A DNA stretch of 46,865 nt from Armatimonadota bacterium (GCA_031363565.1 JANLUQ010000365.1:1-46865); one strand, 5' to 3'; numbered from the stretch's first letter, positions 8,510-38,674 are shown. Notes: generated from the letters alone by a model not told the origin. Made by a program: numbers and translations.

Positions 8510-8551
8510 GGATTCCTCTCCGCGGCGAAAGAGCACCGAACGGATGTGTCT

Positions 8552-8581
8552 ATTATACCCGGCCGACCCAGTACATCACAA
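8552..8581 (-). promoter_or_regulatory. sigma-70-like promoter for recQ
   Basis: Minus strand: TTGTGA, 18 nt, then TATAAT within GGGTATAAT. Confidence 0.45.
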
Positions 8582-8733
8582 TAAGCCCTGGCGCTGCCGG
8601 CGCACAGACGGAACGTGTTGGCTACTCGATGCCTTGCCACTCACGGAGAAGGTGACTCGCGTCGCGCGCCGCCGATAGTTTCCTGAGATTCATCGGGGCA
8701 TCAATCTCTTCCCAAAGATGCTGGCGCTGAGTT

Positions 8734-9087
8734 TCAAATTCCTGCATTTTGGCTCGCTTCTTGCCTTGGCGCAGATTTTGGTCCAACTGCGACTCGATGG
8801 GTCAGCATCAGTTTTGAGCCAGGAATGACCGGCTCCTCGCGTGTCTGGTACTCCCACTCCTGCTGGAACTTGCTTCGCATCTTCTGGTTCTCTAGCCAGG
8901 CATCATCTACCTCAGTGAACTCGTGGACCGGCGGTATCGAGTAGCGAATGATGCCCGCTTCCTGCAACCGGCCCTGCATGGCTGCACTGACGAACTTCCG
9001 CCACTGGACGAACTTTCTGGATGCTTCTTGGACTGTCCCTGCTTCAACCTGTATCTTGATGGCGACGGAGAAGGCAAACTTAGCCAT
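8734..9087 (-). CDS. hypothetical protein, AT-richer, possibly frame-disrupted at its 3' end
   Basis: 117-aa ORF. A second frame continues as IESQLDQNLRQGKKRAKMQEFETQRQHLWEEIDAPMNLRKLSAARDASHLLREWQGIE down to 8622. That reads as more protein-like than the annotated tail. Confidence 0.35.
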   Translation of the reverse strand: MAKFAFSVAIKIQVEAGTVQEASRKFVQWRKFVSAAMQGRLQEAGIIRYSIPPVHEFTEVDDAWLENQKMRSKFQQEWEYQTREEPVIPGSKLMLTHRVAVGPKSAPRQEASQNAGI

Positions 9088-9113
9088 GATGTTCCTTCCT
9101 GATGCTGATAAGT

Positions 9114-10022
9114 TCAGGCGCGCGGGTGCGTTCGGTCGTAGACCTCGCGCAGACGGGCTACGTCTACGCGTGTGTAGCGCTGGGTGGTCTGGACGCTGGC
9201 GTGGCCCAGCATCTCCTGGATGGCGCGCAGATCGGCCCCGCCGGAGAGCAGGTGGGTGGCGAAGGAGTGGCGAAGGACGTGGGGGGAGATGGTGCGGGCG
9301 ATGCCGGCCTGCTTGGCGTATGCCTTGACCAGAACGAGGAAGTGATGCCGGGTCATCGGGCCGCCCCGGCGGGTCACGAAGAGGAACGGCGTCGGCGGTT
9401 TGGTCGCAAGCAGGACGGGGCGAGCACTGGCGAGGTATGCCGTCAAGGTGTCGTGGACGCCGTCGCCGAGGGGCACTTGCCGTTGCTTGCCGCCCTTGCC
9501 GAAGGGGCGGAGGAGGCGGGCGCGCAGGTCCACGTCCTCGGACTTCAGGGCGACGAGTTCCGAGACGCGCAGACCGCAGCCGTACATGGTTTCCAGCATC
9601 GCTCGGTCGCGCAGGCCCGCCGGTGTTGCCTCAGGCGGGACTGTCAGCAGGCGCTCGATCTCAGGCAGGGAGAGAGTGGTCGGGAGGCGCTGCGCGAGTT
9701 TCCCCGCCTCAACCGCGAGGGTCGGATCGGTGGTAAGATGCCCGTCACGGCACAGGAACTGCATCCAGAGCCTCACCGAGATCGTCTTGCGCGCGATGCT
9801 GGCCGGGCGCAGTCCCTGCCGCCGCAGTCCAGCCAGAAAGCTGTAGACATGCCCCGGCGTGATTGCCTTGACCTCGGCAACATCCTGGGCGGCCAGCGAA
9901 GCGAGGAACTGCGTCAGGTCATAGCGGTAAGCGGTCAGCGTGTTGGCCGACAGGCCGCGCTCGGCGGACATGTTCGCCAGGAAGGCGTCCATGAGCCGCA
10001 CTGCGTCCGCTTTTCCCTCCAC
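9114..10022 (-). CDS. xerD: tyrosine recombinase XerD-like
   Basis: LRDRAMLETMYGCGLRVSELVAL, HVLRHSFATHLL, LGHASVQTTQRYTRV and a terminal HPRA, closely resembling XerD. GTG start overlaps the upstream stop (TAGTG). Confidence 0.75.
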   Translation of the reverse strand: MEGKADAVRLMDAFLANMSAERGLSANTLTAYRYDLTQFLASLAAQDVAEVKAITPGHVYSFLAGLRRQGLRPASIARKTISVRLWMQFLCRDGHLTTDPTLAVEAGKLAQRLPTTLSLPEIERLLTVPPEATPAGLRDRAMLETMYGCGLRVSELVALKSEDVDLRARLLRPFGKGGKQRQVPLGDGVHDTLTAYLASARPVLLATKPPTPFLFVTRRGGPMTRHHFLVLVKAYAKQAGIARTISPHVLRHSFATHLLSGGADLRAIQEMLGHASVQTTQRYTRVDVARLREVYDRTHPRA

Positions 10023-11578
10023 TAAGCCACTTCCGTCGGCACGATGCGGTCATCATTTTCCTGCAAGCCGGCCTCCTGCGTCTCGACCGGACGCGCGGAG
10101 GAGGCGGGGCGAGCGCGGGTCTCGGCCCAGAAGCGCAGGATGTCTATCTTCTCCTTCATGGTCTCGGACAGCGGTATGGACTGTTTGGCGGCCTTCAGGA
10201 TGTCATCGGTCAGGATGTCGCGGTCCTGGTTAAAGGCATCGTACATGGCCGCGATGATGGCCTGCTCGATCTCCGCCCCCGAATAGCCATTGGTCGCCTT
10301 CGCCAAGGCCTTGAGATCGAAGAGCGCGGGGTCGCGCCGCCGCTTTTTGAGGTGGATGGTGAAGATGTCCTCGCGCTCCGGCTCGTCCGGCAGGTCCACG
10401 AAGAAGATCTCATCAAAGCGGCCTTTTCGGAGCAGTTCGGGGGGAAGCGCGGACACGTCATTCGCGGTCGCCACGACGAAGCAGGGGGCGGTCTTGTCCT
10501 GAAGCCAGGCGAGGAAGGTGCCGAAGACCCGCGCGGTCGTCCCGCCGTCGCTGATTCCCGACGACTGTGTCCCCGAGAAGCCCTTTTCCAGCTCGTCTAT
10601 CCAGACGATATTCGGGGCGGTGCTTTCGGCCACCCGGATGGCTTTTCGAATATTCTCCTCGCTCTGTCCGACGATGCCGCCGAAGATCTTGCCCACGTCC
10701 ATGCGGAGGAGCGGCAGCTTCCAGAGCGACGCGATGGCCTTGCTCGAGAGTGATTTGCCGCAGCCCTGAACGCCCAAAATCAGGATGCCCTTAGGGGCGG
10801 GCAGGCCGTAGTCACGGGCCTTCTCGGTAAAGGCGACGGTGCGCTTGTCCATCCAATCTTTGAGCAGGTCCAGCCCGCCGACGTCCGCGAAGGCTTCGGA
10901 GGTTCGGTAATACTCCAGGATAGCCGATTTGCGGATGATCTGCTCTTTCTCGGACAGAATAACGTCGGTGTCGAACTTACGCCGCTCGACCAGGGACTTG
11001 GCGAAGACGTTCTCGGCCTCGGTCGCCGTCAGGCCCAGGGCGGCCTGCAAGACCTGCTCACGCTCCTCGGTCGTCATCTGCGTCTGCACCTGCGGGTTAG
11101 CCCGGACGGACTCGATGATGCTGTCCAACAGCCGCCCCAAATCTTCCAGCGATGGCAGGGCGTAGTCCACGACCGTGATCTCTTTTTCTAGCTCCGCCGG
11201 CAGTTTCAGCACGGGGGACAGCAGAATTAATGTCTTGTACGAGGTCTTGAGCGCATAGGTCAGATCGCGCAGGCGGCGGACGAGGGAGGTGTCATTGAGG
11301 AACGGATGGAAGTCTTTCAGCAGGAAGACGGCCTGGTCACGCGACTCCATCACGAAGTCTAAAGCGGCCAGTGGGTCGCGCGTGGCCTCATCGCGGTTGA
11401 GCGGGTTCAGCACCATTCCCTGCGTGACGGTCCACTGGTACATCTTCTTGTTGCGGGCCTTGGTGATAGCGCGCAGGGCCTCCTCAACGCGCTTCTCCTC
11501 CCAGGAGACGACGTAGATGATCGGGTAGCGCGCCCGGATCAAAGTTTCCAGTTCCGTGTCTACTTCGCTTTGTGGCAT
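10022..11578 (-). CDS. Ycf46-like AAA+ ATPase
   Basis: N-terminus LIRARYPIIYVVSWEEKRVEEAL resembles cyanobacterial/plastid Ycf46. Walker A GVQGCGKS, Walker B IVWIDELEK. Confidence 0.8.
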   Translation of the reverse strand: MPQSEVDTELETLIRARYPIIYVVSWEEKRVEEALRAITKARNKKMYQWTVTQGMVLNPLNRDEATRDPLAALDFVMESRDQAVFLLKDFHPFLNDTSLVRRLRDLTYALKTSYKTLILLSPVLKLPAELEKEITVVDYALPSLEDLGRLLDSIIESVRANPQVQTQMTTEEREQVLQAALGLTATEAENVFAKSLVERRKFDTDVILSEKEQIIRKSAILEYYRTSEAFADVGGLDLLKDWMDKRTVAFTEKARDYGLPAPKGILILGVQGCGKSLSSKAIASLWKLPLLRMDVGKIFGGIVGQSEENIRKAIRVAESTAPNIVWIDELEKGFSGTQSSGISDGGTTARVFGTFLAWLQDKTAPCFVVATANDVSALPPELLRKGRFDEIFFVDLPDEPEREDIFTIHLKKRRRDPALFDLKALAKATNGYSGAEIEQAIIAAMYDAFNQDRDILTDDILKAAKQSIPLSETMKEKIDILRFWAETRARPASSARPVETQEAGLQENDDRIVPTEVA

Positions 11579-11594
11579 GACTGTCCTTTATATC

Positions 11595-11771
11595 TCAGAG
11601 TGGCCTGGCTAATCCTGCCGCCATGTCTTGTTTAGCGCGTTCGATGATCTCGTCGAAGCGACCGGCTTCCCAGTCTCGGGCGATCTGCTGATCCCACTGC
11701 TCCTGCCTTAGTTCTTCAAGTCGCTCCATGAGTTGATCAAGCTCTCCCGGCGTAAGTTTAGCGGCAGCCAT
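11595..11771 (-). CDS. small helical hypothetical protein (58 aa)
   Basis: MAAAKLTPGELDQLMERLEELRQEQWDQQIARDWEAGRFDEIIERAKQDMAAGLARPL. ATG 11771. The longer ORF-track version begins inside the palindromic element. The gene ends 16 nt upstream of the AAA+ gene. Confidence 0.5.
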   Translation of the reverse strand: MAAAKLTPGELDQLMERLEELRQEQWDQQIARDWEAGRFDEIIERAKQDMAAGLARPL

Positions 11772-11817
11772 TTCTATCTCTCGGATGCTCACGTCTGAAC
11801 ACTCCTGATTCGCCCCG

Positions 11818-11950
11818 GGTTGAAACCCGAGGCTCGGAAAAGCCCAGCGTACAAGGGACGCAAGAGGAAGGCAGAGACGCGGGTGAGAAGGACATTCTTG
11901 CTCAGGCTGTCCCCTGAACAGTGGGTACTTCCGAGCCTCGGGTTTCAACC
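11818..11950. repeat. MITE-like / long-hairpin palindromic element (22-bp perfect terminal inverted repeats)
   Basis: GGTTGAAACCCGAGGCTCGGAA at 11818-11839 is the exact reverse complement of 11929-11950. The inner flanks show further imperfect complementarity. Confidence 0.8.
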
Positions 11951-11972
11951 TGTGGCTATTTATCCTTGCTAT

Positions 11973-12629
11973 CTATCCTTGCTCCTCGTCACCCTGCCTC
12001 TGTCTCCGCGCTGCCTCGGCTCCTTGCCAAAGCTCCTTATAACGCTCTTGGACATAGGGGGCCAGTTGCTCGGCCAATGCCTCCGGCAACGCAAGCATCT
12101 TGATCACTTCCTGCACATCTGCAAGGTCTTTGAGGCGGGCTAGACCTGTCATGCCGGACGCCAGCTTTAGCTCGATGAGGGCGTTCAAGTTTAGGAGGCG
12201 GATGCCCTCTTGTTCCACCGCGACAAGACCCGGCTCAGGAAATGCCACCGGCTTTGGCTTGCCGTCGCCGGGGAACTCACCGGCGACAAGGAACTCGATG
12301 CGGACGCCATTTTCCGTGTCGCGTAGGTTCTTGCTGCTGGCAAAAGGCGGCCGGTAGCCGCTGCCTTCCAATGCCTCATGCAGCCTTTGCAGGCCCTCGC
12401 GCGTCACCAAAATATCCACATCTTCCGTGAAACGCCGGAAGCCGTGCAGGAACAGTGCCATGCCGCCGACCACAGCATAGTCTATACCCAGGACGTTGAG
12501 GCGGCCTGTGATGCGGCGCAGCGACTTCTGTACTTCGCTTTCGTTCTGAAAGAACATGCCACCCTCCCTGAGCGCCCAGTTCATGTCGCTGTCGAGTCTC
12601 TTCGTGTAGTCCAACGGCAAAGTGGTCAT
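11973..12629 (-). CDS. nucleotidyltransferase-fold protein (AbiEii / minimal-NTase-like)
   Basis: VVGGMALFLHGFRRFTEDVDILV (GG..., DxD) and a C-terminal KDLADVQEVI motif. ATG 12629 overlaps the upstream stop as ATGA. Confidence 0.6.
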   Translation of the reverse strand: MTTLPLDYTKRLDSDMNWALREGGMFFQNESEVQKSLRRITGRLNVLGIDYAVVGGMALFLHGFRRFTEDVDILVTREGLQRLHEALEGSGYRPPFASSKNLRDTENGVRIEFLVAGEFPGDGKPKPVAFPEPGLVAVEQEGIRLLNLNALIELKLASGMTGLARLKDLADVQEVIKMLALPEALAEQLAPYVQERYKELWQGAEAARRQRQGDEEQG

Positions 12630-13084
12630 GGCTTTGCTCCCTTTGCCAAATCCCTTTTGTCCCAATAGCGGCTGATAGTGTCTTCATCTTCTGCTAGGAT
12701 GCCATAACCGTCATAAATCGGGGAACAGTTTCGGACCAAGGGCCACTCACCAGAGGGTTCAGCCGAACCGATGGAGAGGTCACACCGTATGCTCAAATCC
12801 TCGGTGAAGTTGTGGACGCCAGCCGACATTTCCCCGCAGGCGGCCCAGTAGCCATACAGGAAATGCTGCTCCTGTTCGATCATGCCGATGACGCCTCGCA
12901 GCTCATCGTGAAAGACAAAGAAGCGGTTGACACGGATGTGAAACTGCCCAGCCCAATCAACAATCTCGTAGTCGAAAAGCACCGGGGCCGCACTCCCATC
13001 AGCACGATGCCAGCCCCAGCCATATCCAAGCTTCAAGTAAAGCAGACCGCCAACATAACTTTCCGGTGCGGCGATGTCAAGCAC
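12626..13084 (-). CDS. hypothetical protein with no recognisable family
   Basis: Open frame with GTG 13084 preceded by GGAGG at 8-nt spacing. The TTG 13111 used by the ORF track is less likely. Translationally coupled to the NTase gene. Confidence 0.5.
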   Translation of the reverse strand: MLDIAAPESYVGGLLYLKLGYGWGWHRADGSAAPVLFDYEIVDWAGQFHIRVNRFFVFHDELRGVIGMIEQEQHFLYGYWAACGEMSAGVHNFTEDLSIRCDLSIGSAEPSGEWPLVRNCSPIYDGYGILAEDEDTISRYWDKRDLAKGAKP

Positions 13085-13107
13085 TGTCGGTGCCTCCTGC
13101 CAACATC

Positions 13108-14793
13108 TCAAAGACTGATTTCGGCCCGCACGACGCCCGCCCTTTGGTGCCGCGCAAGCAGTTTAACCGTGCCGCCTTGGGGCGCGTGGACGATCCAGTC
13201 GAAGTGGGCACGGTCGTCGGTGGGGTCGGCGACGGGGCTGAAACCACTCGCGGCTTTGAGGTTGCGGCCTTCCAATTGGCCTAGCTCTTCGCGGACGCGG
13301 CCCACATGGAGCGTCGCGCCGTCGGGCAAGGTAATCTCGGCCAGGACGGGGCGAACGCTCTTGCGCTCCAGGGCGCGCTTGGAGATATCGGTGGGCAGCC
13401 AGCCGGTGTTCTGGACGACCAGGCGGACACGGTAGACGCCGTCGCCCAGGGGTTTGGCTTCGGCGGAGAGGAGTTCCAGCTTGGGGGTGATGAGGGCCTG
13501 CCAGACCAGCCAGTCGGAGTGCGGGGCGATCTCAGCTTCCAGCAGGTGCGGGGGCGGGTTGCGGAAGCAGTAGGCATAGTCCCAGCCCCCGATCTCGACG
13601 GGTCCGAGGTCGGGATGGTCGAAGGGTGCCCAGGGAACAAACCCCTTGCCATCCAGCTTCTCATCGTTCCACTGAATGAGCTTCAGGTCATCTTCAATCG
13701 GGTGCTCGCGGAACCATTCGATGAACTTGTAGTCCGTGATGCCCGCCTGACGCTGCGGGGACCAGAGTTCGGTCGTCCAGGCGTAGACGCCCAAATGGTC
13801 GTACATCCAGTCATCGAAGACGCCCGTAATGACCTCTTTGGGGTGGTACTTGAAGTCGTGGAAGACGGAGACATTTGGGTAACCGGTCAGCTCCGTTCCC
13901 TTGTCGCCGATCTTCATGAACGTCCACAAGTCCTCGGGGATCATCTCCGAGTCGGCTTTGACGCCGTAGGGGCGCAGGATAACGCCGCTGAGGGTATGAA
14001 ATGTCACCGCGCCGCAGATGTTGGGGTGCTTAACGATGAACTCGACGAGGGCGCGAATCTCCGGCTCGGAGGTCGGGAACTCGCCCGCGCCACCCTGGTC
14101 GCCTTCGGGCCGCCACTCGGAGGGGAAGTTGCGGTTTAGGTCCAGCCCTTCCTTGCTCTTTTGCAGGCGGACCTGGACGCCGTCGTAATTGGTCAAGCGG
14201 CCCTCGGGGAGCTGGCGGTAGTAGGCGCCACCGGTCTCGGTCGGGCCTCGGCGGATCAGCAGGCGAGGCTCGTCCGGGTGGGTCTTCCAGGCCCCGTTCG
14301 GATCGAGGAGGCGCATGGAAAGCAGCTTGCCGTTGCCGTCCACATCCTCGCGCTTGAGTCCCTCGATAGGCTCCTCGTCGAACGGGTAAGGCCGGGCGGA
14401 GGAGCGCAGCCAGCGCGGGGGCGTCTGCATCGCCAGCTCGGCCCCATCCGGGTTGACACGCGGGACGATGTAGAAGGCGCGGGTGTCCAGGGCGCGCGTC
14501 ACATCGGCATCGGTTCCATCCCCACTCGTCAGCCGGTGCAGCAAATAGAGGGCGGCGCTCGACGGGGACAGCTCAGTCGCATGGATATTGGCATCCACCC
14601 AAAAGGCGGGCTTCTCGTCGGCGGGACCGGTCAAGAAGCGCGTCACGGTCGCGAGCCAGATGTCACGTCCCTCGTAAGACTTGCCGATGCTGTGGACATG
14701 GACCAGGTCCGGGCGCTCGGCGGCGAACGCATGCAGCAGATGCGTAATCTCTTCGTGATTGTAGTAGCGGTCAAAGGTCAGGTCCATCGGCAT
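13108..14793 (-). CDS. M14-family zinc carboxypeptidase
   Basis: SIGKSYEGRDIWLATVT and VDANIHATELS (HxxE zinc ligands). ATG 14793 is preceded by AAGGA. Confidence 0.85.
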   Translation of the reverse strand: MPMDLTFDRYYNHEEITHLLHAFAAERPDLVHVHSIGKSYEGRDIWLATVTRFLTGPADEKPAFWVDANIHATELSPSSAALYLLHRLTSGDGTDADVTRALDTRAFYIVPRVNPDGAELAMQTPPRWLRSSARPYPFDEEPIEGLKREDVDGNGKLLSMRLLDPNGAWKTHPDEPRLLIRRGPTETGGAYYRQLPEGRLTNYDGVQVRLQKSKEGLDLNRNFPSEWRPEGDQGGAGEFPTSEPEIRALVEFIVKHPNICGAVTFHTLSGVILRPYGVKADSEMIPEDLWTFMKIGDKGTELTGYPNVSVFHDFKYHPKEVITGVFDDWMYDHLGVYAWTTELWSPQRQAGITDYKFIEWFREHPIEDDLKLIQWNDEKLDGKGFVPWAPFDHPDLGPVEIGGWDYAYCFRNPPPHLLEAEIAPHSDWLVWQALITPKLELLSAEAKPLGDGVYRVRLVVQNTGWLPTDISKRALERKSVRPVLAEITLPDGATLHVGRVREELGQLEGRNLKAASGFSPVADPTDDRAHFDWIVHAPQGGTVKLLARHQRAGVVRAEISL

Positions 14794-14902
14794 GGTGTTT
14801 CCTTGCTCCCAGCATTTATCGCCGCCCTCTTGGGGTACACTGAGGGTACGCGCTCTTGCGGGCAACGCTGCCGCTCTCCCTCATGTTACCCTGTGACTGC
14901 TT

Positions 14903-15715
14903 ATGCTTATCCGTCTCGGCTACGACATCATCTTTCAGTTTCCCGTCCCGACTCCCATGCTGCTGATGCTCAACACGCACCCCTTGGAGGCACACCGGCT
15001 GCGGGGCGAGGACCGGCCCCGGTCAGAGCCGCAGGTTCCAACCACGGAGTTCATTGACGGTTTCGGCAACCGCTGTAGCCGTCTGGTCGCGCCCGCGGGA
15101 CGTCTGCGGCTGTATTCGGAGGCCGTGGCCGAAGACAGCGGGCTGCACGAGGTCATCGCGACGGACGCGCCGCAGCACCCGATCGAGGACCTGCCGGACG
15201 AGTGCCTGACGTTCCTGCTGGGGAGCCGGTACTGCGAGGTGGCCGAGATGCTGCCCATCGCATGGGATATGTTCGGGAAGACGCCGACGGGCGGGGCGCG
15301 GGTGCAGGCGGTCTGCGACTGGGTATTCGCGAATGTGGAATTCGGCTACCAGTACGCGCGCCCGTCCAAGACCGCCCTGGACGTCTTCACCGAGCGGCGC
15401 GGCGTCTGCCGCGACTTCACGCACCTGGCGGTTACCTTCTGCCGCTGCCTGAACATCCCGACCCGCTACTGTAACGGCTACCTGGGGGACATCGGCGTCC
15501 CCCCCGACGTCAATCCCGGGGACTTCAATGCCTGGTTCGAGGTCTATTTGGGGGGCCGCTGGCACACCTTCGACGCCCGCCACAACGAGCCACGCATCGG
15601 ACGGGTGCTGCTAACGCGCGGACGGGACGCGACCGATATCGCGATGACGACGGCCTTCGGCGCGAACACGCTGGAGCAGTTCATCATCGTGACTGAAGAA
15701 GTGCCGGAGGCTTAG
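14903..15715 (+). CDS. transglutaminase-like cysteine protease family protein
   Basis: Core motif RGVCRDFTHLAVTFCRCLNIPTRYCNGY and the typical MLIRLGYDI N-terminus. Confidence 0.85.
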   Translation: MLIRLGYDIIFQFPVPTPMLLMLNTHPLEAHRLRGEDRPRSEPQVPTTEFIDGFGNRCSRLVAPAGRLRLYSEAVAEDSGLHEVIATDAPQHPIEDLPDECLTFLLGSRYCEVAEMLPIAWDMFGKTPTGGARVQAVCDWVFANVEFGYQYARPSKTALDVFTERRGVCRDFTHLAVTFCRCLNIPTRYCNGYLGDIGVPPDVNPGDFNAWFEVYLGGRWHTFDARHNEPRIGRVLLTRGRDATDIAMTTAFGANTLEQFIIVTEEVPEA

Positions 15716-15745
15716 GGGACGCTTGGGAGGCCACTAGAGAGGCCG

Positions 15746-16486
15746 CTACTTTCCCCACGGCGGGTCGGCGATGAGCTTGTCCAGAGCGGAATATGGGATG
15801 CCGACTTTGACATTCCCCTGGGTAGCCATACCGATGTAGACATTGACGGTCTTGGCGATGTTGTCGTGGACCAGAATAGTCGGTGTCTCATCAATCCCCT
15901 CGCCTTCGGCGAACCTAGCAGATGCCTTCAGCTTGTCAATTCCCTGTCCGGCATCAAACGCCTTTTGGAAAAAGGCCTTGTCCAGCCCGGCTTTAGCAGC
16001 ATAACCACCGTAGAAGCCGGGTTCAAGGTCGTCTTGGTGCGAGTAGAGTATGTCATACATCGGCCAGAACTTCCCCTGGTCGGCGGCGATCTCCGAGGCT
16101 TGCCCGGAGGGCATAGCCCATTCATGGATGCTGGGGATCGGTCGGTGAACGAAGATCAGGTTGACCTGCTTGGGATGCTGTGCCAGCATCTTCTCCAGCA
16201 AAGGCCGTGCCGCCCCGCATTGGGGGCACTGAAAGTCGCCGAACTCGGCAAGGGTATAACGCGCCCCTGCATCGCCGCGCGGTGGGGCGGCGGCGTGGGC
16301 TATGATCTGCGGCCAGTCCGCTTCCAGCTTCTCCGCGCTGAGCTTGGGCATGGGGTTTGTCGGGGGTCCCCCAGGGCGTGAACTCGCGGGCGGCTTGCCC
16401 AGGACGTTGATCGCGACGATCAGGCTGGCCAGCAGGACCACCCAAACTCCCAGCAACACGATCTTCTTTGTTCCTACCTTACCCAT
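15746..16486 (-). CDS. DsbA-family thiol:disulfide oxidoreductase (membrane-anchored)
   Basis: N-terminal TM helix and thioredoxin-fold CPQC active site (FGDFQCPQCG). Confidence 0.8.
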   Translation of the reverse strand: MGKVGTKKIVLLGVWVVLLASLIVAINVLGKPPASSRPGGPPTNPMPKLSAEKLEADWPQIIAHAAAPPRGDAGARYTLAEFGDFQCPQCGAARPLLEKMLAQHPKQVNLIFVHRPIPSIHEWAMPSGQASEIAADQGKFWPMYDILYSHQDDLEPGFYGGYAAKAGLDKAFFQKAFDAGQGIDKLKASARFAEGEGIDETPTILVHDNIAKTVNVYIGMATQGNVKVGIPYSALDKLIADPPWGK

Positions 16487-32909: not shown

Positions 32910-32959
32910 CGTCTTTTCCGACACCCCCGCAATCCGCCCTCTTGTTCTTCCAGTAAGCT

Positions 32960-32967
32960 GCCGATAA
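32960..32967 (+). promoter_or_regulatory. sigma-28 (FliA)-type -10 box GCCGATAA, 7 nt before the flgB ATG
   Basis: Exact GCCGATAA. No TAAA -35 at the canonical spacing and no Shine-Dalgarno before flgB. Confidence 0.3.
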
Positions 32968-32974
32968 TAGCGGC

Positions 32975-33370
32975 ATGGATACCAGCACTTTTACCGCGCT
33001 GTCGCAGGCCCTGGACTTAGGCTCCGCGCGCCTCCAAGCCATCTCCAACAACCTCTCCAATATCAACACGCCCGGCTTCAAGCGCCAGGACGCCACCTTT
33101 GCCGCCCTGCTCCAGTCGGCGGAAGCGGGCGACTCTTTGACGCAGGCTGCGCCCGACCCGCGCCACCTGACGTTGGGCGATGACGGCGGGAGCAGTTCGC
33201 CCGCGCTCGTGACCCAGAGCAGCGGCTCGATGCGGCCCGATGGCAACAATGTGGACATTGATGCCGAGACCAGCCGGATGGCCGCCGCCGAGATCTACTA
33301 TCAGGGCGCGGCGCAGCTTCTCAGCGGGCAGTTCTCAGGCATGAAGTATGTGATTTCAGGAGGGCGCTAA
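32975..33370 (+). CDS. flgB: flagellar basal-body rod protein FlgB
   Basis: LQAISNNLSNINTPGFKRQD rod-protein N-terminal signature. Size and position fit flgB. Confidence 0.9.
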   Translation: MDTSTFTALSQALDLGSARLQAISNNLSNINTPGFKRQDATFAALLQSAEAGDSLTQAAPDPRHLTLGDDGGSSSPALVTQSSGSMRPDGNNVDIDAETSRMAAAEIYYQGAAQLLSGQFSGMKYVISGGR

Positions 33371-33373
33371 CCG

Positions 33374-33826
33374 ATGGGATTTATGGACACGCTGGCGATC
33401 AGCGCCTCGGGCATGACGGCGGAGCGGCTGCGAATGGATGTCGTCGCCAACAACCTGGCGAATGTCAACACGACGCGCACGCCGGGCGGCGGGCCGTTCC
33501 GGCGCGAGCAGGTCGCGATGGCCCCGGCCTCGGCCTCCTTCGGCGAGACCCTGGCGGGCCTCTCCGGCGACAACGGCGGGGCGGAAGCCGTGCAGGGCGG
33601 CGTGCAGGTGTCGGGCATCGTCCCCGACATGCGCCCTTTTAAGCGCGTCTACCAGCCCGGACACCCGGACGCCGACAAGCAAGGCTACGTCAACCTGCCG
33701 AATGTGGACACCGTGACCGAGATGGTGGACATGATGGGCGCGACCCGCGCCTACGAGGCGAACGTCGCCGCCGTCGGAGCCGTCAAGGGAATGGCGATGA
33801 AGGCGATGGAGATCGGGCGGGCATAG
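33374..33826 (+). CDS. flgC: flagellar basal-body rod protein FlgC
   Basis: SGMTAERLRMDVVANNLANVNTTRTPGG and C-terminal RAYEANVAAVGAVKGMAMKAMEIGR. Confidence 0.92.
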   Translation: MGFMDTLAISASGMTAERLRMDVVANNLANVNTTRTPGGGPFRREQVAMAPASASFGETLAGLSGDNGGAEAVQGGVQVSGIVPDMRPFKRVYQPGHPDADKQGYVNLPNVDTVTEMVDMMGATRAYEANVAAVGAVKGMAMKAMEIGRA

Positions 33827-33839
33827 GCGAAACCCAGGC

Positions 33840-34273
33840 TCAGACGCTCCAGTCCACCGCCTGCACGCCGGGGATCTGCTGGAAATGCCGCAGGTTGGCG
33901 GTCACGACCGTGAGCCGCCGGTTGATGGCACTCGCAGCAACACGGCAATCGCGTGTTCCCACTCGTTTGACCGCCGCCGACCAGCTCTGATAGAGGTCTT
34001 CATCCGCCTCGGTGTACGGCAGTGTTTGGAACTGCCGCAGAAATTCCTGGGTCAGCACGAGGTCACGATAAGCAACGGGGATGAGGAGAGTGTCTTTGGG
34101 TCGGGCTGGATTCAGTTTCGCGAGGACCCCAACCGCCCCCGGAACTGCTCCTCCACAACGACGGCAGGCAGCCAGAGTTTGGCTGGCGGAACAGCCAACG
34201 CCCGCGGGTTTAAGAGACTGCTGCGTCCTCGGAAGAGAAGACTTGCAGTGTCGTTGTCCAGCGCGAAGATGGC
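33840..34273 (-). pseudogene. PIN-domain (VapC-like) toxin gene, frameshifted and without a canonical start
   Basis: The N-terminal half (AIFALDNDTASLLFRG...VVVEEQFRGRLG) is in one frame. The C-terminal half (YRDLVLTQEFLRQFQTLPYTEAD...RLTVVTANLRHFQQIPGVQ) is in another. They switch at G/C runs near 34127-34140. Confidence 0.6.
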
Positions 34274-34474
34274 CTACTCGACCAGCCCATGCTTCTGGTC
34301 TATTTCCCGCCGCGACTGTTCCATCTCTTGAAGGAACTCGTCCCACAGCGGGTCATCCGCAAACCCGCCGATGACACGGGTGAGCGGATGCTCCTCCGGC
34401 GGCGTGGTTCCGTGCGTGCCGTTATGCTCCGCTATTGGCGTCTCCACCGCGACCTTATCTTTAACGATTTCCAT
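34274..34474 (-). CDS. putative antitoxin partner of the PIN toxin (66 aa)
   Basis: Small acidic ORF ending DDPLWDEFLQEMEQSRREIDQKHGLVE, directly abutting the PIN gene. Confidence 0.5.
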   Translation of the reverse strand: MEIVKDKVAVETPIAEHNGTHGTTPPEEHPLTRVIGGFADDPLWDEFLQEMEQSRREIDQKHGLVE

Positions 34475-34521
34475 AACCGACAGTTTACCCCATCTGCCTC
34501 ATGTCCTCAACCGCATTGAAG

Positions 34522-34620
34522 AACATGATGAGCGCCACGCGCCTACGAGGCGAACGTCGCCGCCGTCGGAGCGGTCAAGGGCATGGCGATGAAGACACTG
34601 AAGATTGGAAGGGCGGCGTC
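34522..34620 (+). pseudogene. duplicated, degenerate 3' end of flgC
   Basis: 34539-34572 is identical to 33747-33780 (34 nt), and flanking similarity extends to about 70 bp. It has a 1-nt deletion relative to flgC and encodes ..AYEANVAAVGAVKGMAMKTLKIGRA. Confidence 0.8.
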
Positions 34621-34682
34621 CACTAGACCTCACCGTTCGACGACTGCCGCGCCGTCCCCTGACCGTCATCCAAAGGGTGCTC

Positions 34683-34979
34683 CTAAGAGGTTAAGTCATA
34701 ATCATCCGGCTTGGAATGGCGTTTTTCCTTTAGATAAGTCAGAAGAGTTACCCAGGCTCCACATATGCCTCCCACAAGTCCATACCACAAGCCCACATGA
34801 GGCCACCACCATTGTATATGAGCTAGACTGATATTTGGGGGGTCACAAATCAAGTAAGTTGCAAAACAGACCAAAGGCACAAATAACGTCGCCGACAGAA
34901 AAGTCAACAACAGTTTAATCCAGAGAACGTCCGTCCATCTTTTCATTTTGTATTTGACCTTTTGATGAACAGCCGCCAT
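34683..34979 (-). CDS. small three-TM membrane protein, candidate immunity protein
   Basis: AT-rich ORF with hydrophobic segments, 41 nt downstream of the glycine-zipper ORF. The position is typical of immunity genes. Confidence 0.45.
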   Translation of the reverse strand: MAAVHQKVKYKMKRWTDVLWIKLLLTFLSATLFVPLVCFATYLICDPPNISLAHIQWWWPHVGLWYGLVGGICGAWVTLLTYLKEKRHSKPDDYDLTS

Positions 34980-35019
34980 ATGGGAGGCGGCTGTTCAACT
35001 CCAAGGGTTGATCCACCGG

Positions 35020-35193
35020 CTATTCCATTGTATGGAACATCCGGTTGTAGCCCTCACCGTTTGCCCTTCTTTGGTACGCCTCTGCCGCTGCTACGCCAGC
35101 AGCGAAGCCCAGAACGCCACCTACCGGACCACCCACGCCGAAGCCGATTGCGCCACCGACCATCCCGGCGGCTATGTTCCCAACTACATGCAA
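35020..35193 (-). CDS. glycine-zipper membrane peptide (57 aa), in frame with the RHS fragment across a TAG
   Basis: Not in the ORF track (under 60 aa). Sequence: (M)HVVGNIAAGMVGGAIGFGVGGPVGGVLGFAAGVAAAEAYQRRANGEGYNRMFHTME. Only TAG plus one codon separate it from the upstream ORF. Confidence 0.4.
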   Translation of the reverse strand: MHVVGNIAAGMVGGAIGFGVGGPVGGVLGFAAGVAAAEAYQRRANGEGYNRMFHTME

Positions 35194-35196
35194 TGC

Positions 35197-35685
35197 CTAT
35201 CCACGAGTGATAGGAATGAGGCCCCCAGCAGGCTGGTTGTTACGTGAAGTTGGGAAAGACTGGGCAGAGCTCGGGGATCTAGGTGGTGGTAAATTTCGCG
35301 TTGGATCAACTGCTCCCTGATGCCCGCTGGGATCGCTGAAGTTGATGGGGTCGCTGTCGCAGTAGGCGTAGGGCTTTTGGCTCAGAACCGTGTCCCGCGT
35401 CAGGAAGCACCCGAACTCCGGGTCGTAGTAGCGCGCCCCCACCTTCAGCAGAGCCGCCGCATACGTCGGCCCGAACCCGTCCGAGCGGTAGCCGCTCTTT
35501 GCACCCCATCGGTAGGGATTCGCCGTACTTCCGCTTGAAGAGGAGACCATGCCATACCCCTGGTACGAACCCGACCACTGCACCACTGGGCTACCGTTGC
35601 CCGTCGTCTGGCGCACTGCCCCCAGGCCGTCATACAGCAGCGTCTCCCCACCGGTGCTTACCAGCCCGTTCCCGTACAGGTTCAT
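35197..35685 (-). CDS. RHS repeat-associated core fragment (orphan C-terminal module)
   Basis: YD repeat LLYDGLGAVRQTT, then the core end GARYYDPEFGCFLTRDTVL..PYAYCDSDPINFSDPSGH (DPxG cleavage motif). The frame is open upstream through a TM-like segment but has no start codon there. Confidence 0.7.
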   Translation of the reverse strand: MNLYGNGLVSTGGETLLYDGLGAVRQTTGNGSPVVQWSGSYQGYGMVSSSSGSTANPYRWGAKSGYRSDGFGPTYAAALLKVGARYYDPEFGCFLTRDTVLSQKPYAYCDSDPINFSDPSGHQGAVDPTRNLPPPRSPSSAQSFPTSRNNQPAGGLIPITRG

Positions 35686-35924
35686 ACTCGAGGAGGTCTG
35701 GTTCGACTGCGTCAGCGTTGCGTTCCCGTCAAAAGGAGCTTGTAGGATAGGCAGAAAGAAGACTGTGACGAGAAGGGTGACAAAGAGCGTCAGGAATGAG
35801 AGACATGGCCGAGAGACGTGGCCGAGAGAGGTTGGGCAGTGGGTGTGCCTGTCACGAGAAAGGTCATCGTAGGAGTCTCCTTTACAACGCGCAGCAGACG
35901 CTCGATTGTTTCTGCGATGAAAAT

Positions 35925-35953
35925 AGTGTAGAGCTTATTTCGAGGTTTGTCAA
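35925..35953 (-). promoter_or_regulatory. sigma-70-like promoter firing into the RHS cassette, toward flgC
   Basis: Minus strand: TTGACA (35953..35948), 17 nt, TACACT (35930..35925). Confidence 0.4.
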
Positions 35954-36041
35954 GCGAACCTCAAAAAATCTTATGAAATATACGTGAGGGGGAGATTTTT
36001 GGCCAACAATGCCATGTACCCTACTCTTCCAATTTACACTT

Positions 36042-36049
36042 GCCGATAA
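36042..36049 (+). promoter_or_regulatory. sigma-28 (FliA)-type -10 box GCCGATAA
   Basis: Exact GCCGATAA about 80 nt upstream of the FlgM-like ORF. No canonical TAAA -35. Confidence 0.3.
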
Positions 36050-36129
36050 CAATACAAGGCATCATATTCAAGGCAGGATGCCGCTCGAGAGGGATTTTGT
36101 CCCCACCGGTACAAATTCAGGAGGATACA

Positions 36130-36354
36130 ATGAGAGTCATTTACTCGGGGGCTTCCCCGAAACCCATAGTCGGCACATCTCGCAACGCGGCACCAGCACA
36201 GGAGGCCGGCTTTGCACCGGCCGCGACGCCGGCGCCGGCCGCTACCGTGGAGATCTCGTCTGCTGCGCGTGGGGCTTACTCCAAAGGGGAGCAGCACGCG
36301 CCCACCCACAAGATACGCCCTCTCAATATCATCTGGGGCAATAGTCCGAAATAG
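36130..36354 (+). CDS. short FlgM-like (anti-sigma-28) candidate, 74 aa
   Basis: ATG 36130 follows CAGGAGG. Disordered Ala/Pro-rich N-terminal half, then TVEISSAARG resembling the FlgM (D)KVELS motif. The C-terminal helices are short or absent. Confidence 0.3.
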   Translation: MRVIYSGASPKPIVGTSRNAAPAQEAGFAPAATPAPAATVEISSAARGAYSKGEQHAPTHKIRPLNIIWGNSPK

Positions 36355-36554
36355 CGTCTGGGTCAGCCTCGCGGTGGCCGATAGCCTCCCGCTCCGGTTT
36401 TGGAGCAGGGGGCTGTTGTTTTGTCTGCGGCCTGACGAAAAAAACTGTGACTTTCTCCAGGGCCTTATGGAACAATCCGCATGTCAAGCCGAGGGCCACT
36501 GCCGATTAGCAGGCGGCGGCCCGCCATTTTCCAGGCATTTCCCAGGAGAACTTC

Positions 36555-36875
36555 ATGAACTTATCCGCATTATCCGCGACCGCACTTCCCTCAGCGACCG
36601 GCATCTCCGATGCGGCGGCCGGCCTGCTCGGGTCGGACGCCAAGACGTCCGATTCCCCCTCCTTCGGCCAGATGCTGCAAAGCGCCTTCGGGCAGGTCAG
36701 CGCCCTCCAGGACCATTCGGCGCAGATGACCCAGGCGTTCGCGCGGGGCCAGGTCAGCGATGTCCACAGCGTCATGATCGCCTCGGAGCAGGCGACGATG
36801 GCCTTGCAGCTGACAACCCAGGTCCGCAACAAAGCGATAGACGCCTACCAGGAGATCATGCGGATCAGCATCTAG
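36555..36875 (+). CDS. fliE: flagellar hook-basal body complex protein FliE
   Basis: SFGQMLQSAFGQVSALQ...DVHSVMIASEQATMALQLTTQVRNKAIDAYQEIMRI. Confidence 0.9.
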   Translation: MNLSALSATALPSATGISDAAAGLLGSDAKTSDSPSFGQMLQSAFGQVSALQDHSAQMTQAFARGQVSDVHSVMIASEQATMALQLTTQVRNKAIDAYQEIMRISI

Positions 36876-36952: not shown

Positions 36953-38674
36953 TTGGCAATCGCAACGAGTTGGGGAGAATCACTGCGCGTCTGGTGGCAG
37001 GGCGCGACACCAGCGACGCGGGCCATGGCGACGGGCCTGGTCCTGCTGATGGTCGTCGGCCTGGCCGTCGCCGCCTCGCTGGCCGCCAGCCCGGACTACC
37101 ACGCGATCTATCACGGCGTCAGCGGCAAGGACGCCTCAGCGATCGAGGCCGTTCTGCGCGAGAAGTCCATCGCCATGCACTTCGACGACAAGGATGGGAC
37201 GATCAGCGTCCCCGCCAAGGACGAGAGCAATGCTTTTATGTATATCGAGGCGGCGGGCATCCTCTCCAAAGACACGGTCGTGGACGGCCTGGGCGATATT
37301 GATAAGATCACCATCGGCACCACGCCCGAGGTCGAGCGCCAAAGGATGCTGAACGAGGCGCAGGGGGAGCTGTCCCGCAAGCTGATGCGCCTCGACCCCG
37401 TCCAGACCGCCGCCGTCTCGCTCGCGCTGCCCAGTGAGTCGTCCTTCGTCGGCGAGGAAACGCCGCCGTCGGCCAGCGTCATCCTGACGCTCAAGCAGGG
37501 CGAGAGCCTGAGCGGGCTTCAGGTCAAGGGCATCGTCAACCTCATTGCCCATGCCGTTCCCAGCCTGACCACGCAGAACGTGGCCCTGACCGACCAGACC
37601 GGCGTCCCACTGTGGAAAGACAACGGCGCGGGCGGGGTCGGCACGGACGGCACCTTGATGGCCGAGAACGACAAGTTCAGCGAGGACAAGCGGAAAGTCG
37701 TCCAGGGCCTACTCGATCAGACGGTCGGGCGCGGCAAGGCCGTCGTCACCGTCAATGCCGAACTCAGCCAGGATGTCGTCACGCGGCGCTCGGTCCAGCA
37801 TACGCCCTCACCCGGCCTGCGGACGGGCCTGCCGGTCAGCATCCGCGACAAGCAGGAGACCTACAGCGGGGCAGGCGGGCCGGGGGCGGTGGGCGGCATC
37901 GCCGGAGCGGGTGGCAACCTGAATGTTCCTTCCTACCAGACCGGCGGCGGTGCGGCAGGCGGCGGCAAGTATTCGACGGGCGACACCGTCACCAATTATG
38001 AGAACGATGTCACCGAGACCAAGACCGAGGTCGCGCCGGGCGACCTCAAGAAGCTATCCGTCGCCGCACTCGTGGATACCAGCGTCCCTGCTGAGACGGT
38101 TGCCACGCTGAAAGAATCCATCGCCTTCGCCGTGGGCGCGCTCCCCGGCGACAACACCCGCATCGTCTCAGTCCGTCAGGTCGCCTTCGACATGAGTTCG
38201 CAGAAGGCGCAGGCCGGGCAGGCGCAGACATTGGCCTCGCAGGCACTCATGATCACCATTGCCCGTACCCTCGCCGTCTGCGCCGTCGCCATCGTCCTCC
38301 TGATCCTCCTGACGCGCTCATCCGGCCGCCGAGCCGCTTCCCCACAGCTTGCGCTGGCCGGTGGCGGGGCTAACATCGGCCTCCTGGACCCGATGCCGGA
38401 CGCCGAAATGGCCGCCATTCTGGATTCGGGCGGCGTGCGCGGCATGGAGCGTGGGATGGAGCATGTGCTGGAAGAGCGCCCGCTGACCGTCGAGGACGTG
38501 CTGGCCGAGATGCCGGACCCCGAAGGCCGCCCGCGCCGCCGGGCGCGCGCCCCCTCCATCGAGGAGCAGCAGGACCTCAAGATGGAAAGCATCCGCACCA
38601 TGATCAATGCCCACCCCGAAAGCGTTTCCCTGCTGCTCAAGGGCTGGATGGCCGACGATGTGAAAGTCTCTTAA
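36953..38674 (+). CDS. fliF: flagellar M-ring protein FliF
   Basis: 573 aa with N- and C-terminal TM helices and the YscJ/FliF ring domain pattern. TTG start after GGGGAG. Confidence 0.9.
   Translation: MAIATSWGESLRVWWQGATPATRAMATGLVLLMVVGLAVAASLAASPDYHAIYHGVSGKDASAIEAVLREKSIAMHFDDKDGTISVPAKDESNAFMYIEAAGILSKDTVVDGLGDIDKITIGTTPEVERQRMLNEAQGELSRKLMRLDPVQTAAVSLALPSESSFVGEETPPSASVILTLKQGESLSGLQVKGIVNLIAHAVPSLTTQNVALTDQTGVPLWKDNGAGGVGTDGTLMAENDKFSEDKRKVVQGLLDQTVGRGKAVVTVNAELSQDVVTRRSVQHTPSPGLRTGLPVSIRDKQETYSGAGGPGAVGGIAGAGGNLNVPSYQTGGGAAGGGKYSTGDTVTNYENDVTETKTEVAPGDLKKLSVAALVDTSVPAETVATLKESIAFAVGALPGDNTRIVSVRQVAFDMSSQKAQAGQAQTLASQALMITIARTLAVCAVAIVLLILLTRSSGRRAASPQLALAGGGANIGLLDPMPDAEMAAILDSGGVRGMERGMEHVLEERPLTVEDVLAEMPDPEGRPRRRARAPSIEEQQDLKMESIRTMINAHPESVSLLLKGWMADDVKVS

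Follow-up and report, generated by a model that had tools for sequence, protein, structure and literature searches.

A probable insertion hotspot islet between flgC and fliE in the flagellar gene cluster of Capsulimonadaceae (Armatimonadota)

Organization of the flgC-fliE junction

The window in this study is a stretch of 46,865 nt from an Armatimonadota bacterium of the family Capsulimonadaceae. It carries a flagellar gene cluster in which the rod genes flgB and flgC are separated from fliE by a gap of 2,728 bp (33827-36554), and this gap was examined together with its counterparts in related organisms. Both the open reading frames (ORFs) and the Pfam domains agree with the initial annotation of the locus in placing the end of flgC at 33826 and the start of fliE at 36555, and all five of the minus-strand genes or pseudogenes that it had described in between, antisense to the flagellar genes, were located. 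The gap is also richer in A + T, as had been noticed, with a G + C content of 0.49-0.56 at 34400-35200 and 0.50-0.54 at 35600-36200 compared with about 0.65 in the flanks. The flagellar genes concerned are as follows.

32975-33370, plus strand: flgB, ORF with Pfam Flg_bb_rod/Flg_bbr_C
33374-33826, plus strand: flgC, ORF with Pfam Flg_bb_rod/Flg_bbr_C; an intact proximal rod gene, like flgB
36555-36875, plus strand: fliE, Pfam FliE (1.7e-28); heads the block fliE-fliF-fliG-fliH-fliI-fliJ
36953-38674, plus strand: fliF, Pfam YscJ_FliF (1.5e-43)

The best match in a genome scan was OZ244065, with a FlgC identity of 94%, which places the window in Armatimonadota, Capsulimonadaceae. A FlgC protein 100% identical to that of the window is encoded on 20 metagenome contigs, from several metagenomes. 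Among the flgC haplotypes, the differences at codon positions 1, 2 and 3 numbered 1, 0 and 15, respectively, with no amino-acid change, which indicates that flgC is under strong purifying selection and that the flagellar genes are maintained by selection. As the differences fall almost entirely at third positions and leave the protein unchanged, the flagellar genes appear to be in use, which is at odds with the impaired motility that had been proposed as one outcome of the split. The tRNA/tmRNA scan of the window region found none; thus, the gap is not a tRNA-linked island.

Duplicated flgC 3' ends and haplotype variation

Within the gap, the 3' end of flgC is present a second time.

34510-34620, plus strand: displaced pseudo-copy of the flgC 3' end (about 105 bp), with a 2-bp deletion, frameshifted, its stop codon gone

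This pseudo-copy repeats 33716-33826 of the live gene at a start-to-start spacing of 792-794 bp, and its 83-nt core is 87% identical to 33740-33822, far beyond chance. The end of live flgC and the dead copy bracket a PIN cassette (33827-34509), of which the dead copy forms the right-hand scar. The second copy is a true insertion scar.

The contigs encoding the identical FlgC differ in what they carry between flgC and fliE, and at least four types of content can be told apart, as listed here by length.

2.7 kb: window haplotype, also present in locus L012, an independent assembly from another sample that is 98.75% identical over 3,119 bp
5.6 kb: L001-type haplotype (L001 and others), its cargo a TPR protein, fragments of IS3 and an RHS tip unlike that of the window
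3.5 kb: L005/L006 haplotype, with a 364-aa aspartic protease
Gap incompletely covered: L010 haplotype, with a 663-aa aspartic protease

The flanks of these haplotypes are 97-98% identical, and homology is lost only between the flgC stop codon and position 35320, where the core of an RHS-like gene ends. Three flgC 3' ends are found in the L001-type contigs and three in L010. The relationship between the two types is that of a state before and a state after an insertion: L010 equals L001 plus 2,211 bp placed directly after the flgC stop codon, with a 142-bp duplication of the flgC end, and the sequence that follows the displaced flgC copy in L010 is the one that follows live flgC in L001. A corresponding pair exists in a second species: the L016-like layout has a dehydrogenase gene directly adjoining flgC, and L028 corresponds to such a layout with a 609-bp YoeB/YefM module added and 118 bp duplicated. 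Given these two pairs, the same type of event was repeated and took place in more than one species.

The lengths of the flgC-end repeats vary (about 105, 114, 118 and 142 bp) and their left edges are fuzzy, and the flgC 3' end itself is about 90% conserved in DNA across species. No recombinase or integrase was found among the gap ORFs called or scanned, apart from IS3 fragments in one haplotype.

The flgC-fliE split across Capsulimonadaceae

In the outgroups, which comprised Armatimonadaceae, Chthonomonadaceae, Firmicutes, Thermoleophilia and others, flgC and fliE lie 5-40 bp apart. Together with the flgC scars, this spacing bears out the earlier proposal that cargo was inserted into an ancestrally contiguous gene order. 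Among 26 Capsulimonadaceae loci, the spacer ranges from 106 bp to more than 8 kb and holds unrelated cargo, and it measures at least 106 bp in every species of the family sampled. The cargo of the relatives includes minus-strand RHS/YD genes (L024, L027, L029 and L030), YoeB/YefM (L015 and L028), an intact PIN module (L020), and dehydrogenase or hydrolase genes.

The two sides of the junction can also be found apart. In L216 and L217, a small gene that we designate orf74 lies with fliE beside truB without flgBC, and the hairpin and the motif upstream of fliE (both described below) are kept. In L213 and L214, flgBC and orf74 lie beside an efflux operon without fliE. As they are unlinked in these four loci, flgBC and fliE-fliJ behave as separable units in this lineage.

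Two loci deserve separate mention. In L020, an Armatimonadota metagenome-assembled genome (MAG), no fliE was found within 8 kb downstream of flgC (8450-16450); besides the intact PIN module, this stretch encodes an ankyrin-like protein and functions in sugar metabolism, and either the islet is very large here or the fliE block has moved elsewhere. L033 (JBPBQB010000099.1), which is labelled as a Janthinobacterium lividum MAG, carries a Capsulimonadaceae-type flgB-flgC-fliE arrangement with a FlgC identity of 76% and the family-specific fliE motif, and is probably mis-binned.

Promoter-like elements and a hairpin around the junction

Three predicted transcription signals were recognized beside the flagellar genes.

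32940-32974, plus strand: predicted sigma-28-type promoter of flgB, with a -35-like TCTTGTTC (32940-32947), a 12-nt spacer and the -10 box GCCGATAA (32960-32967)
36379-36418, plus strand: terminator-like hairpin downstream of orf74, with a T-rich run to 36426
36436-36490, plus strand: two-box motif before fliE, consisting of an A-tract, CTGTGA (36445-36450), 17 nt, TGGAACAAT (36468-36476) and CCGCATGTC

An alignment of the 220 nt before fliE contained the two-box motif in all of the Capsulimonadaceae species-level loci checked (25/25), whatever lies upstream. The consensus reads AAAAaAaCcTGTgA, a spacer of about 16 nt and TgTGGAACAATCCgCatGTC, with an internal spacing fixed at 16-17 nt; in short form it is an A-tract, CTGTKA, N16/17 and TGGAACAATCCGCATGTC, with TGTGA and TRTGGAACAAT as the two boxes. 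The motif is located 51-145 nt (mostly 51-97 nt) before the ATG, and the strict pattern occurred once in each matching locus, always on the plus strand upstream of fliE. When metagenomes were scanned with CCTGTKA-N16-TGGAACAAT (15 specified bases), at least 120 loci were returned, nearly all of them chance matches; among the scan matches listed, only L095 and L106 carried the extended consensus, and both are fliE-upstream sites. From its composition, the motif may be a promoter with a UP-like A-tract, a weak -35 box (GTGAnn) and an extended -10 box (TRTGn-AACAAT), and it could alternatively be a regulator site. A sigma-54 promoter was rejected, as TGGAACAATCCGCA has GG-N8-GC and is two bases short of the required GG-N10-GC (TGGCAC-N5-TTGC). 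CtrA, CRP and extracytoplasmic function (ECF)-type sites were considered by eye and were not supported.

An internal mismatch hid the hairpin upstream of this motif from a standard terminator scan; a custom script detected it, and folding confirmed it. The script gave a free energy (dG) of -28.8 kcal/mol for the 44-nt stretch 36376-36419, and the fold of 86 nt had a z-score of -3.8, with none of 200 shuffled sequences folding as well. In the window species, L018, L034, L037 and L039, a hairpin with a T-run precedes the motif by 22-62 nt (dG -16 to -30 kcal/mol), and the hairpin of the window is also present in L216 and L218. It is predicted to terminate transcription. The Rfam scan of 32.8-37 kb returned nothing credible, with a single sub-threshold miRNA match; hence, the fliE motif and the leader of orf74 are not of a known RNA family.

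The region upstream of flgB has the form of a textbook sigma-28-type promoter, and its activity and use of sigma-28 are predicted from this form. Relative to the sigma-28 consensus TAAAGTTT-N11/12-GCCGATAA, the site in the window has a perfect -10 box and a degenerate -35 box (TCTTGTTC), and a family consensus of CTAAAGTTT-N11/12-GCCGATAA-N7-ATG was obtained from Capsulimonadaceae and two other Armatimonadota loci (within L013-L042). The -10 box is only 7 nt before the ATG of flgB, which suggests that the flgB mRNA is leaderless.

The box GCCGATAA occurs twice in the window, both times on the plus strand, before flgB and before orf74. The latter box, at 36042-36049, is the one that the initial annotation had regarded as the only recognizable signal on the fliE side and from which it had derived a circular dependency of fliE on sigma-28. 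The box is indeed present, but the fliE motif is there as well; moreover, the box belongs to orf74, and the strong hairpin separates orf74 from fliE. The rod genes are normally 'early' genes, and if the sigma-28 puzzle arises at all, it concerns flgBC rather than fliE. The associated claim that the insertion uncouples fliE-fliJ from their promoter is likewise not supported, given that the gap is family-wide and the fliE motif conserved. The initial annotation had also set against its own reading a layout native to relatives, free of scars and with a demonstrated promoter before fliE. The relatives do share the split and a conserved promoter-like element, but scars are present and the promoter is a predicted one.

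The small gene orf74

A short plus-strand ORF between the cargo and the hairpin had been described as FlgM-like.

36042-36049, plus strand: sigma-28-type -10 box GCCGATAA, 80 nt upstream of orf74
36130-36354, plus strand: orf74 (74 aa), lineage-restricted, with invariant PAATVEISSAAR and RPLNIIWG

Another species has orf74 with indels of 3 and 12 nt, yet with its frame, ribosome-binding site and stop codon preserved. Only 8 homologues were found in 5.8 billion proteins, and the gene always adjoins flgC or fliE. Judged by its sequence, orf74 is a real, lineage-restricted small gene that forms a new tiny protein family. The ORF itself has therefore stood up, but the FlgM label has not: nine members of the orf74 family had no match to FlgM (PF04316) or to any other Pfam family at E values up to 10, and none was found among solved structures; on these searches, an identity with FlgM was rejected. 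The VEISSAAR stretch of orf74 may resemble the IEISSQAK region of Bacillus subtilis FlgM. As in FlgM, the protein is small, encoded among flagellar genes and preceded by a sigma-28-type -10 box; in contrast to FlgM, it lacks a family-model match and a C-terminal sigma-binding segment, and its homologues number only the eight above.

In relatives, the -10 box of orf74 reads GCCGACAC, GCCGATAC, GCCGATAT or ACCGATAA and is accompanied by the conserved leader AGGCATCATATTCAAGGCAGGATGCC. This leader (36050-36130; also L013, L216 and L218) has the potential to form a 6-bp stem that places a GGA inside the loop or close to it, and the AGGAGGA ribosome-binding site of orf74 contains another GGA; by eye, the arrangement resembles CsrA-bound flagellin leaders.

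Cargo genes of the window haplotype

The cargo of the window haplotype, all on the minus strand, is as follows.

33840-34273, minus strand: PIN-domain (VapC-like) toxin pseudogene, its N-terminal part (34127-34273) and C-terminal part (33840-34121) in different frames
34274-34474, minus strand: 66-aa ORF in antitoxin position, upstream of and abutting the PIN remnant
34683-34979, minus strand: ORF for a 98-aa predicted membrane protein, 95% identical in the L001-type haplotype
35020-35193, minus strand: 57-aa glycine-zipper ORF, in the same frame as the RHS-like ORF
35197-35685, minus strand: 162-aa RHS-associated core-domain fragment, with a conserved part (35320-35685) and a haplotype-specific C-terminal tip (35197-35319)
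35925-35953, minus strand: sigma-70-type promoter-like site TTGACA-17-TACACT, facing the RHS-like gene and flgC

The PIN gene is disabled. Its expected start-codon position is occupied by ATC, and in the remnant as it stands the Pfam PIN model covers profile positions 55-117 only, the C-terminal half, so that it is not the complete domain in an intact ORF that a VapBC-type toxin-antitoxin (TA) module would have. Both halves are detected by tblastn, and the frameshift-corrected protein aligns end to end with the intact PIN protein of L020 (39% identity, E 2e-28). The 66-aa ORF in antitoxin position had no match in Pfam and NCBIfam searches; a weak homologue, with a 39%-identical stretch, adjoins the intact PIN gene in L020. 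This ORF is kept in other haplotypes, with a C-terminus that differs at a homology break at 34307. In the L001-type haplotype, an 83-aa predicted membrane ORF (L001 10533-10784, minus strand) replaces the PIN remnant downstream of the same antitoxin-position ORF, and the break point, at window position 34307, lies inside the 3' end of that ORF. A possible promoter, TTGAGG-17-TAAACT, was noticed by eye at 34478-34506 on the minus strand, 8 nt before the ATG of the 66-aa ORF; its -35 box lies at the junction with the dead flgC copy, and in L001 the third flgC copy follows a junction of related sequence.

The 98-aa membrane ORF, which lies between two flgC 3' copies in the L001-type haplotype, had no family match in Pfam and NCBIfam searches, and its product could be an immunity protein. 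The RHS-like ORF scored 48.4 bits with TIGR03696 (cut-off 32.5) over residues 75-122, reaching profile position 76 of 76, and its core closes at residue 122 with ...INFSDPSGH, a DPxG-type motif. The tips that follow are mutually unrelated in window/L012, L001 and L005, and DNA homology stops at 35320. With only 122 residues before the tip, the gene is short of the RHS shell, which has YD repeats over more than 1000 aa and an export signal; a hydrophobic, signal-like segment lies in frame upstream of the ATG, without a start codon. A single in-frame TAG (window 35194-35199), present also in L012, divides the RHS-like ORF from the 57-aa glycine-zipper ORF, which had weak, sub-threshold matches to DUF456 and microcin V. 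The glycine-zipper segment is probably, from its frame, the severed end of the RHS toxin tip, and because only this one stop parts the two ORFs, the original tip probably measured about 99 aa and bore a membrane-active glycine zipper. The window and L005, but not L001, have a 13-bp tandem duplication (35798-35823; GAGAGACATGGCC / GAGAGACGTGGCC) upstream of the RHS-like ORF, in the interval between a Shine-Dalgarno sequence with ATG at about 35868 and the signal-like segment.

The promoter-like site that had been reported as firing toward flgC was confirmed as the best sigma-70-type match in 32.7-37 kb (10/12 positions). L001 and L005 have the identical site, and L013, which is without the RHS gene, lacks it. 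Most of the window cargo, including the PIN gene and the RHS tip, is disabled or decaying, and the earlier suggestion of a toxin cassette deliberately embedded in flagellar regulation is hard to reconcile with cassettes that are mostly dead. Elsewhere, the cargo includes an unusual type: L005 (3107-4201) and L010 (5794-7785) encode large secreted proteins whose retropepsin-like aspartic protease domains (Asp_protease_2, gag-asp_proteas) number from one to several.

Comparison with known systems

Our literature search found nothing on Capsulimonadaceae flagellar loci or on a hotspot between flgC and fliE. Chromosomal integration hotspots, or 'islets', hold variable accessory DNA between conserved core genes. 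The junction described here has the same conserved flanks, the same strain-variable content of TA, toxin, insertion sequence (IS) and pseudogene sequences and the same turnover within a species, but it is situated inside a basal-body gene cluster that is contiguous in relatives, and it is marked by duplications of 105-142 bp of the 3' end of the left-hand gene, up to three deep.

Genomic islands, integrative and conjugative elements (ICEs) and their integrase-less derivatives, the cis-mobilizable elements (CIMEs), integrate at the 3' ends of tRNA or protein genes and accrete in tandem, and tycheposons are related to them. As in these islands, the target 3' end is restored at the junction, a partial copy lies on the far side, and tandem cargo is parted by partial copies, so that direct repeats of the target end accompany a restored target ORF. 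In contrast, no integrase was found among the ORFs called or scanned at the site, its repeats vary and their left edges differ, which does not indicate a recombinase with a fixed crossover core; the cassettes measure 0.6-2.2 kb, and the target is flgC.

Polymorphic toxin loci of the Rhs and contact-dependent inhibition (CDI) types switch their C-terminal tips and possess orphan modules. The RHS-like gene resembles them in that its core ends in a DPxG-type motif, that the strains diverge right after it and that the small ORFs downstream are possible immunity genes. It differs in its core of about 122 residues without a YD-repeat shell, in a signal-like segment without a usable start and in a tip cut by a stop codon, and no core-fragment orphans were seen.

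In the fla/che operon of Bacillus subtilis, flgB-flgC-fliE-fliF are co-transcribed from a sigma-A promoter and an upstream sigma-D promoter. The window has the same order of flgB-flgC-fliE-fliF-fliG-fliH-fliI-fliJ and, before flgB, a promoter of predicted sigma-28/sigma-D type. However, a spacer, a hairpin and a further promoter-like motif interrupt this order after flgC, the flgB -10 box is 7 nt from the ATG, and the cluster ends after fliJ and two genes, compared with about 30 further genes in B. subtilis.

Proposed origin of the islet and alternative explanations

Taken together, our comparative analyses indicate that the flgC-fliE junction is likely a strain-variable insertion hotspot islet at the native boundary of two flagellar transcription units. 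The ancestor would have had flgB-flgC-fliE contiguous behind a sigma-28-type promoter, as in other Armatimonadota. In Capsulimonadaceae, a spacer would have arisen at this boundary, in many cases with a terminator, and fliE-fliJ would have acquired a promoter-like element of their own. DNA placed between the flgC stop codon and that element would therefore interrupt no essential transcript. Cargo may then enter directly after the stop codon through recombination within the last 105-142 bp of flgC, with the incoming piece bringing an intact flgC 3' end and a convergent cargo gene, and the resident 3' end being displaced downstream as a dead copy. Repeated events would stack the cassettes, the newest beside flgC. 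At the far end of the islet, the RHS-core fragment would exchange its C-terminal tips exactly after DPSGH. The cargo as a whole comprises TA modules and IS fragments together with RHS tips, membrane proteins and aspartic proteases that are secreted. The pattern of scars is the one expected if a circular fragment bearing the flgC 3' end joined the chromosome through one crossover, and homology-anchored illegitimate joining would yield it as well.

Several points weigh against this explanation. The scars fit RecA-mediated integration of a circle, homology-facilitated illegitimate recombination and a trans-acting site-specific recombinase about equally well. A convincing hairpin is not present in all species, the -35 part of the fliE motif is weak, and both the fliE promoter and the terminator are predictions at the level of consensus sequences. 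All cargo in the window species is antisense, which could reflect selection or a directional mechanism, and the RHS-type genes that recur here in several species could be due to shared ancestry rather than to repeated insertion.

Among the alternatives, it is possible, at rather low probability, that the cassettes are integrase-less mobilizable elements, similar to CIMEs or tycheposon satellites, which use the flgC 3' end as an attachment site, are moved by a tyrosine recombinase in trans and accrete in tandem. Known integrative elements that target gene 3' ends restore the target end and leave flanking repeats, and this explanation gains from the likeness: the insertions lie exactly after the flgC stop codon, the flgC end is restored, 3'-end direct repeats flank the cargo, and the pattern recurs in at least two species with up to three copies stacked. 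However, neither an integrase nor another recombinase was found among the gap ORFs called or scanned beyond the IS3 fragments, the repeats are of unequal length (from about 105 through 114 and 118 to 142 bp) with fuzzy rather than fixed left edges, and neither a tRNA gene nor any further known attachment feature is present; as the flgC 3' end is about 90% conserved, ordinary homologous recombination suffices. An assembly artefact, in which a chimeric contig would have placed unrelated DNA between flgC and fliE, is practically negligible, as the window haplotype was assembled independently as L012 (98.75% identity over 3,119 bp) and the other haplotypes each occur in several samples, even though the source is probably a metagenome assembly and flgC 3' repeats can mislead assemblers.

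The proposal of the initial annotation, that a recent insertion severed fliE-fliJ from the flgB promoter and led to impaired or rewired motility and a circular sigma-28 dependency, appears improbable. The split and the fliE motif are family-wide and older than the window cargo, the sigma-28 box is that of orf74 and is followed by a strong hairpin, fliE works in relatives without adjoining flgBC, and flgC, fliE and fliF are conserved under purifying selection in all haplotypes. These observations outweigh those that fit a severed operon, which are that the cargo is truly inserted and the outgroups contiguous, that the cargo and fliE have a sigma-28-type -10 box between them, and that a minus-strand promoter-like site faces flgC. 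Still less probable is a cargo wired into flagellar control, whether through antisense tuning of flgC, through orf74 as a FlgM-like anti-sigma factor or through a motility-coupled toxin. In its favour, all of the cargo is convergent with flgC, RHS-type genes recur at the site in several species and orf74 has its sigma-28-type -10 box and the possibly FlgM-like VEISSAAR stretch; nevertheless, strains whose flagellar proteins are identical carry wholly different cargo, both the PIN gene and the RHS tip of the window are disabled, and orf74 has no FlgM match at E values up to 10. Silent flgC cassettes for pilin-like gene conversion were also considered and rejected, as each copy either carries a frameshift or encodes a peptide near-identical to that of the live gene, and as FlgC is a rod protein located in the periplasm.

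Implications for Capsulimonadaceae

The hotspot islet with accretion scars is a known phenomenon in an unusual place, and the junction is a new example of it. It illustrates that gene order alone can mislead: what seems to be a broken operon is, on the explanation preferred here, a tolerated, family-wide unit boundary used as a hotspot. The stacked flgC 3' copies, together with relatives that lack the insertions, provide a clear natural record of the stepwise addition of TA and toxin cassettes.

Two further-reaching ideas are speculative, and we regard it as doubtful that either holds. The flgC 3' end may be a dedicated capture site for tiny integrase-less cassettes, carrying mainly TA modules and secreted or membrane proteins and served by a recombinase in trans, which would make it a protein-gene analogue of the tRNA-targeting accretion arrays. 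Alternatively, the split may reflect an inverted flagellar hierarchy in Capsulimonadaceae, in which fliE-fliJ (MS-ring, C-ring and export) may be expressed from a housekeeping-type extended -10 promoter, flgBC may be expressed from a sigma-28-type promoter as a leaderless mRNA, and orf74 may be a new sigma-28-dependent small regulator. In a phylum with almost no genetics, the flgB promoter, the fliE motif and orf74 offer first leads on flagellar control in Armatimonadota.

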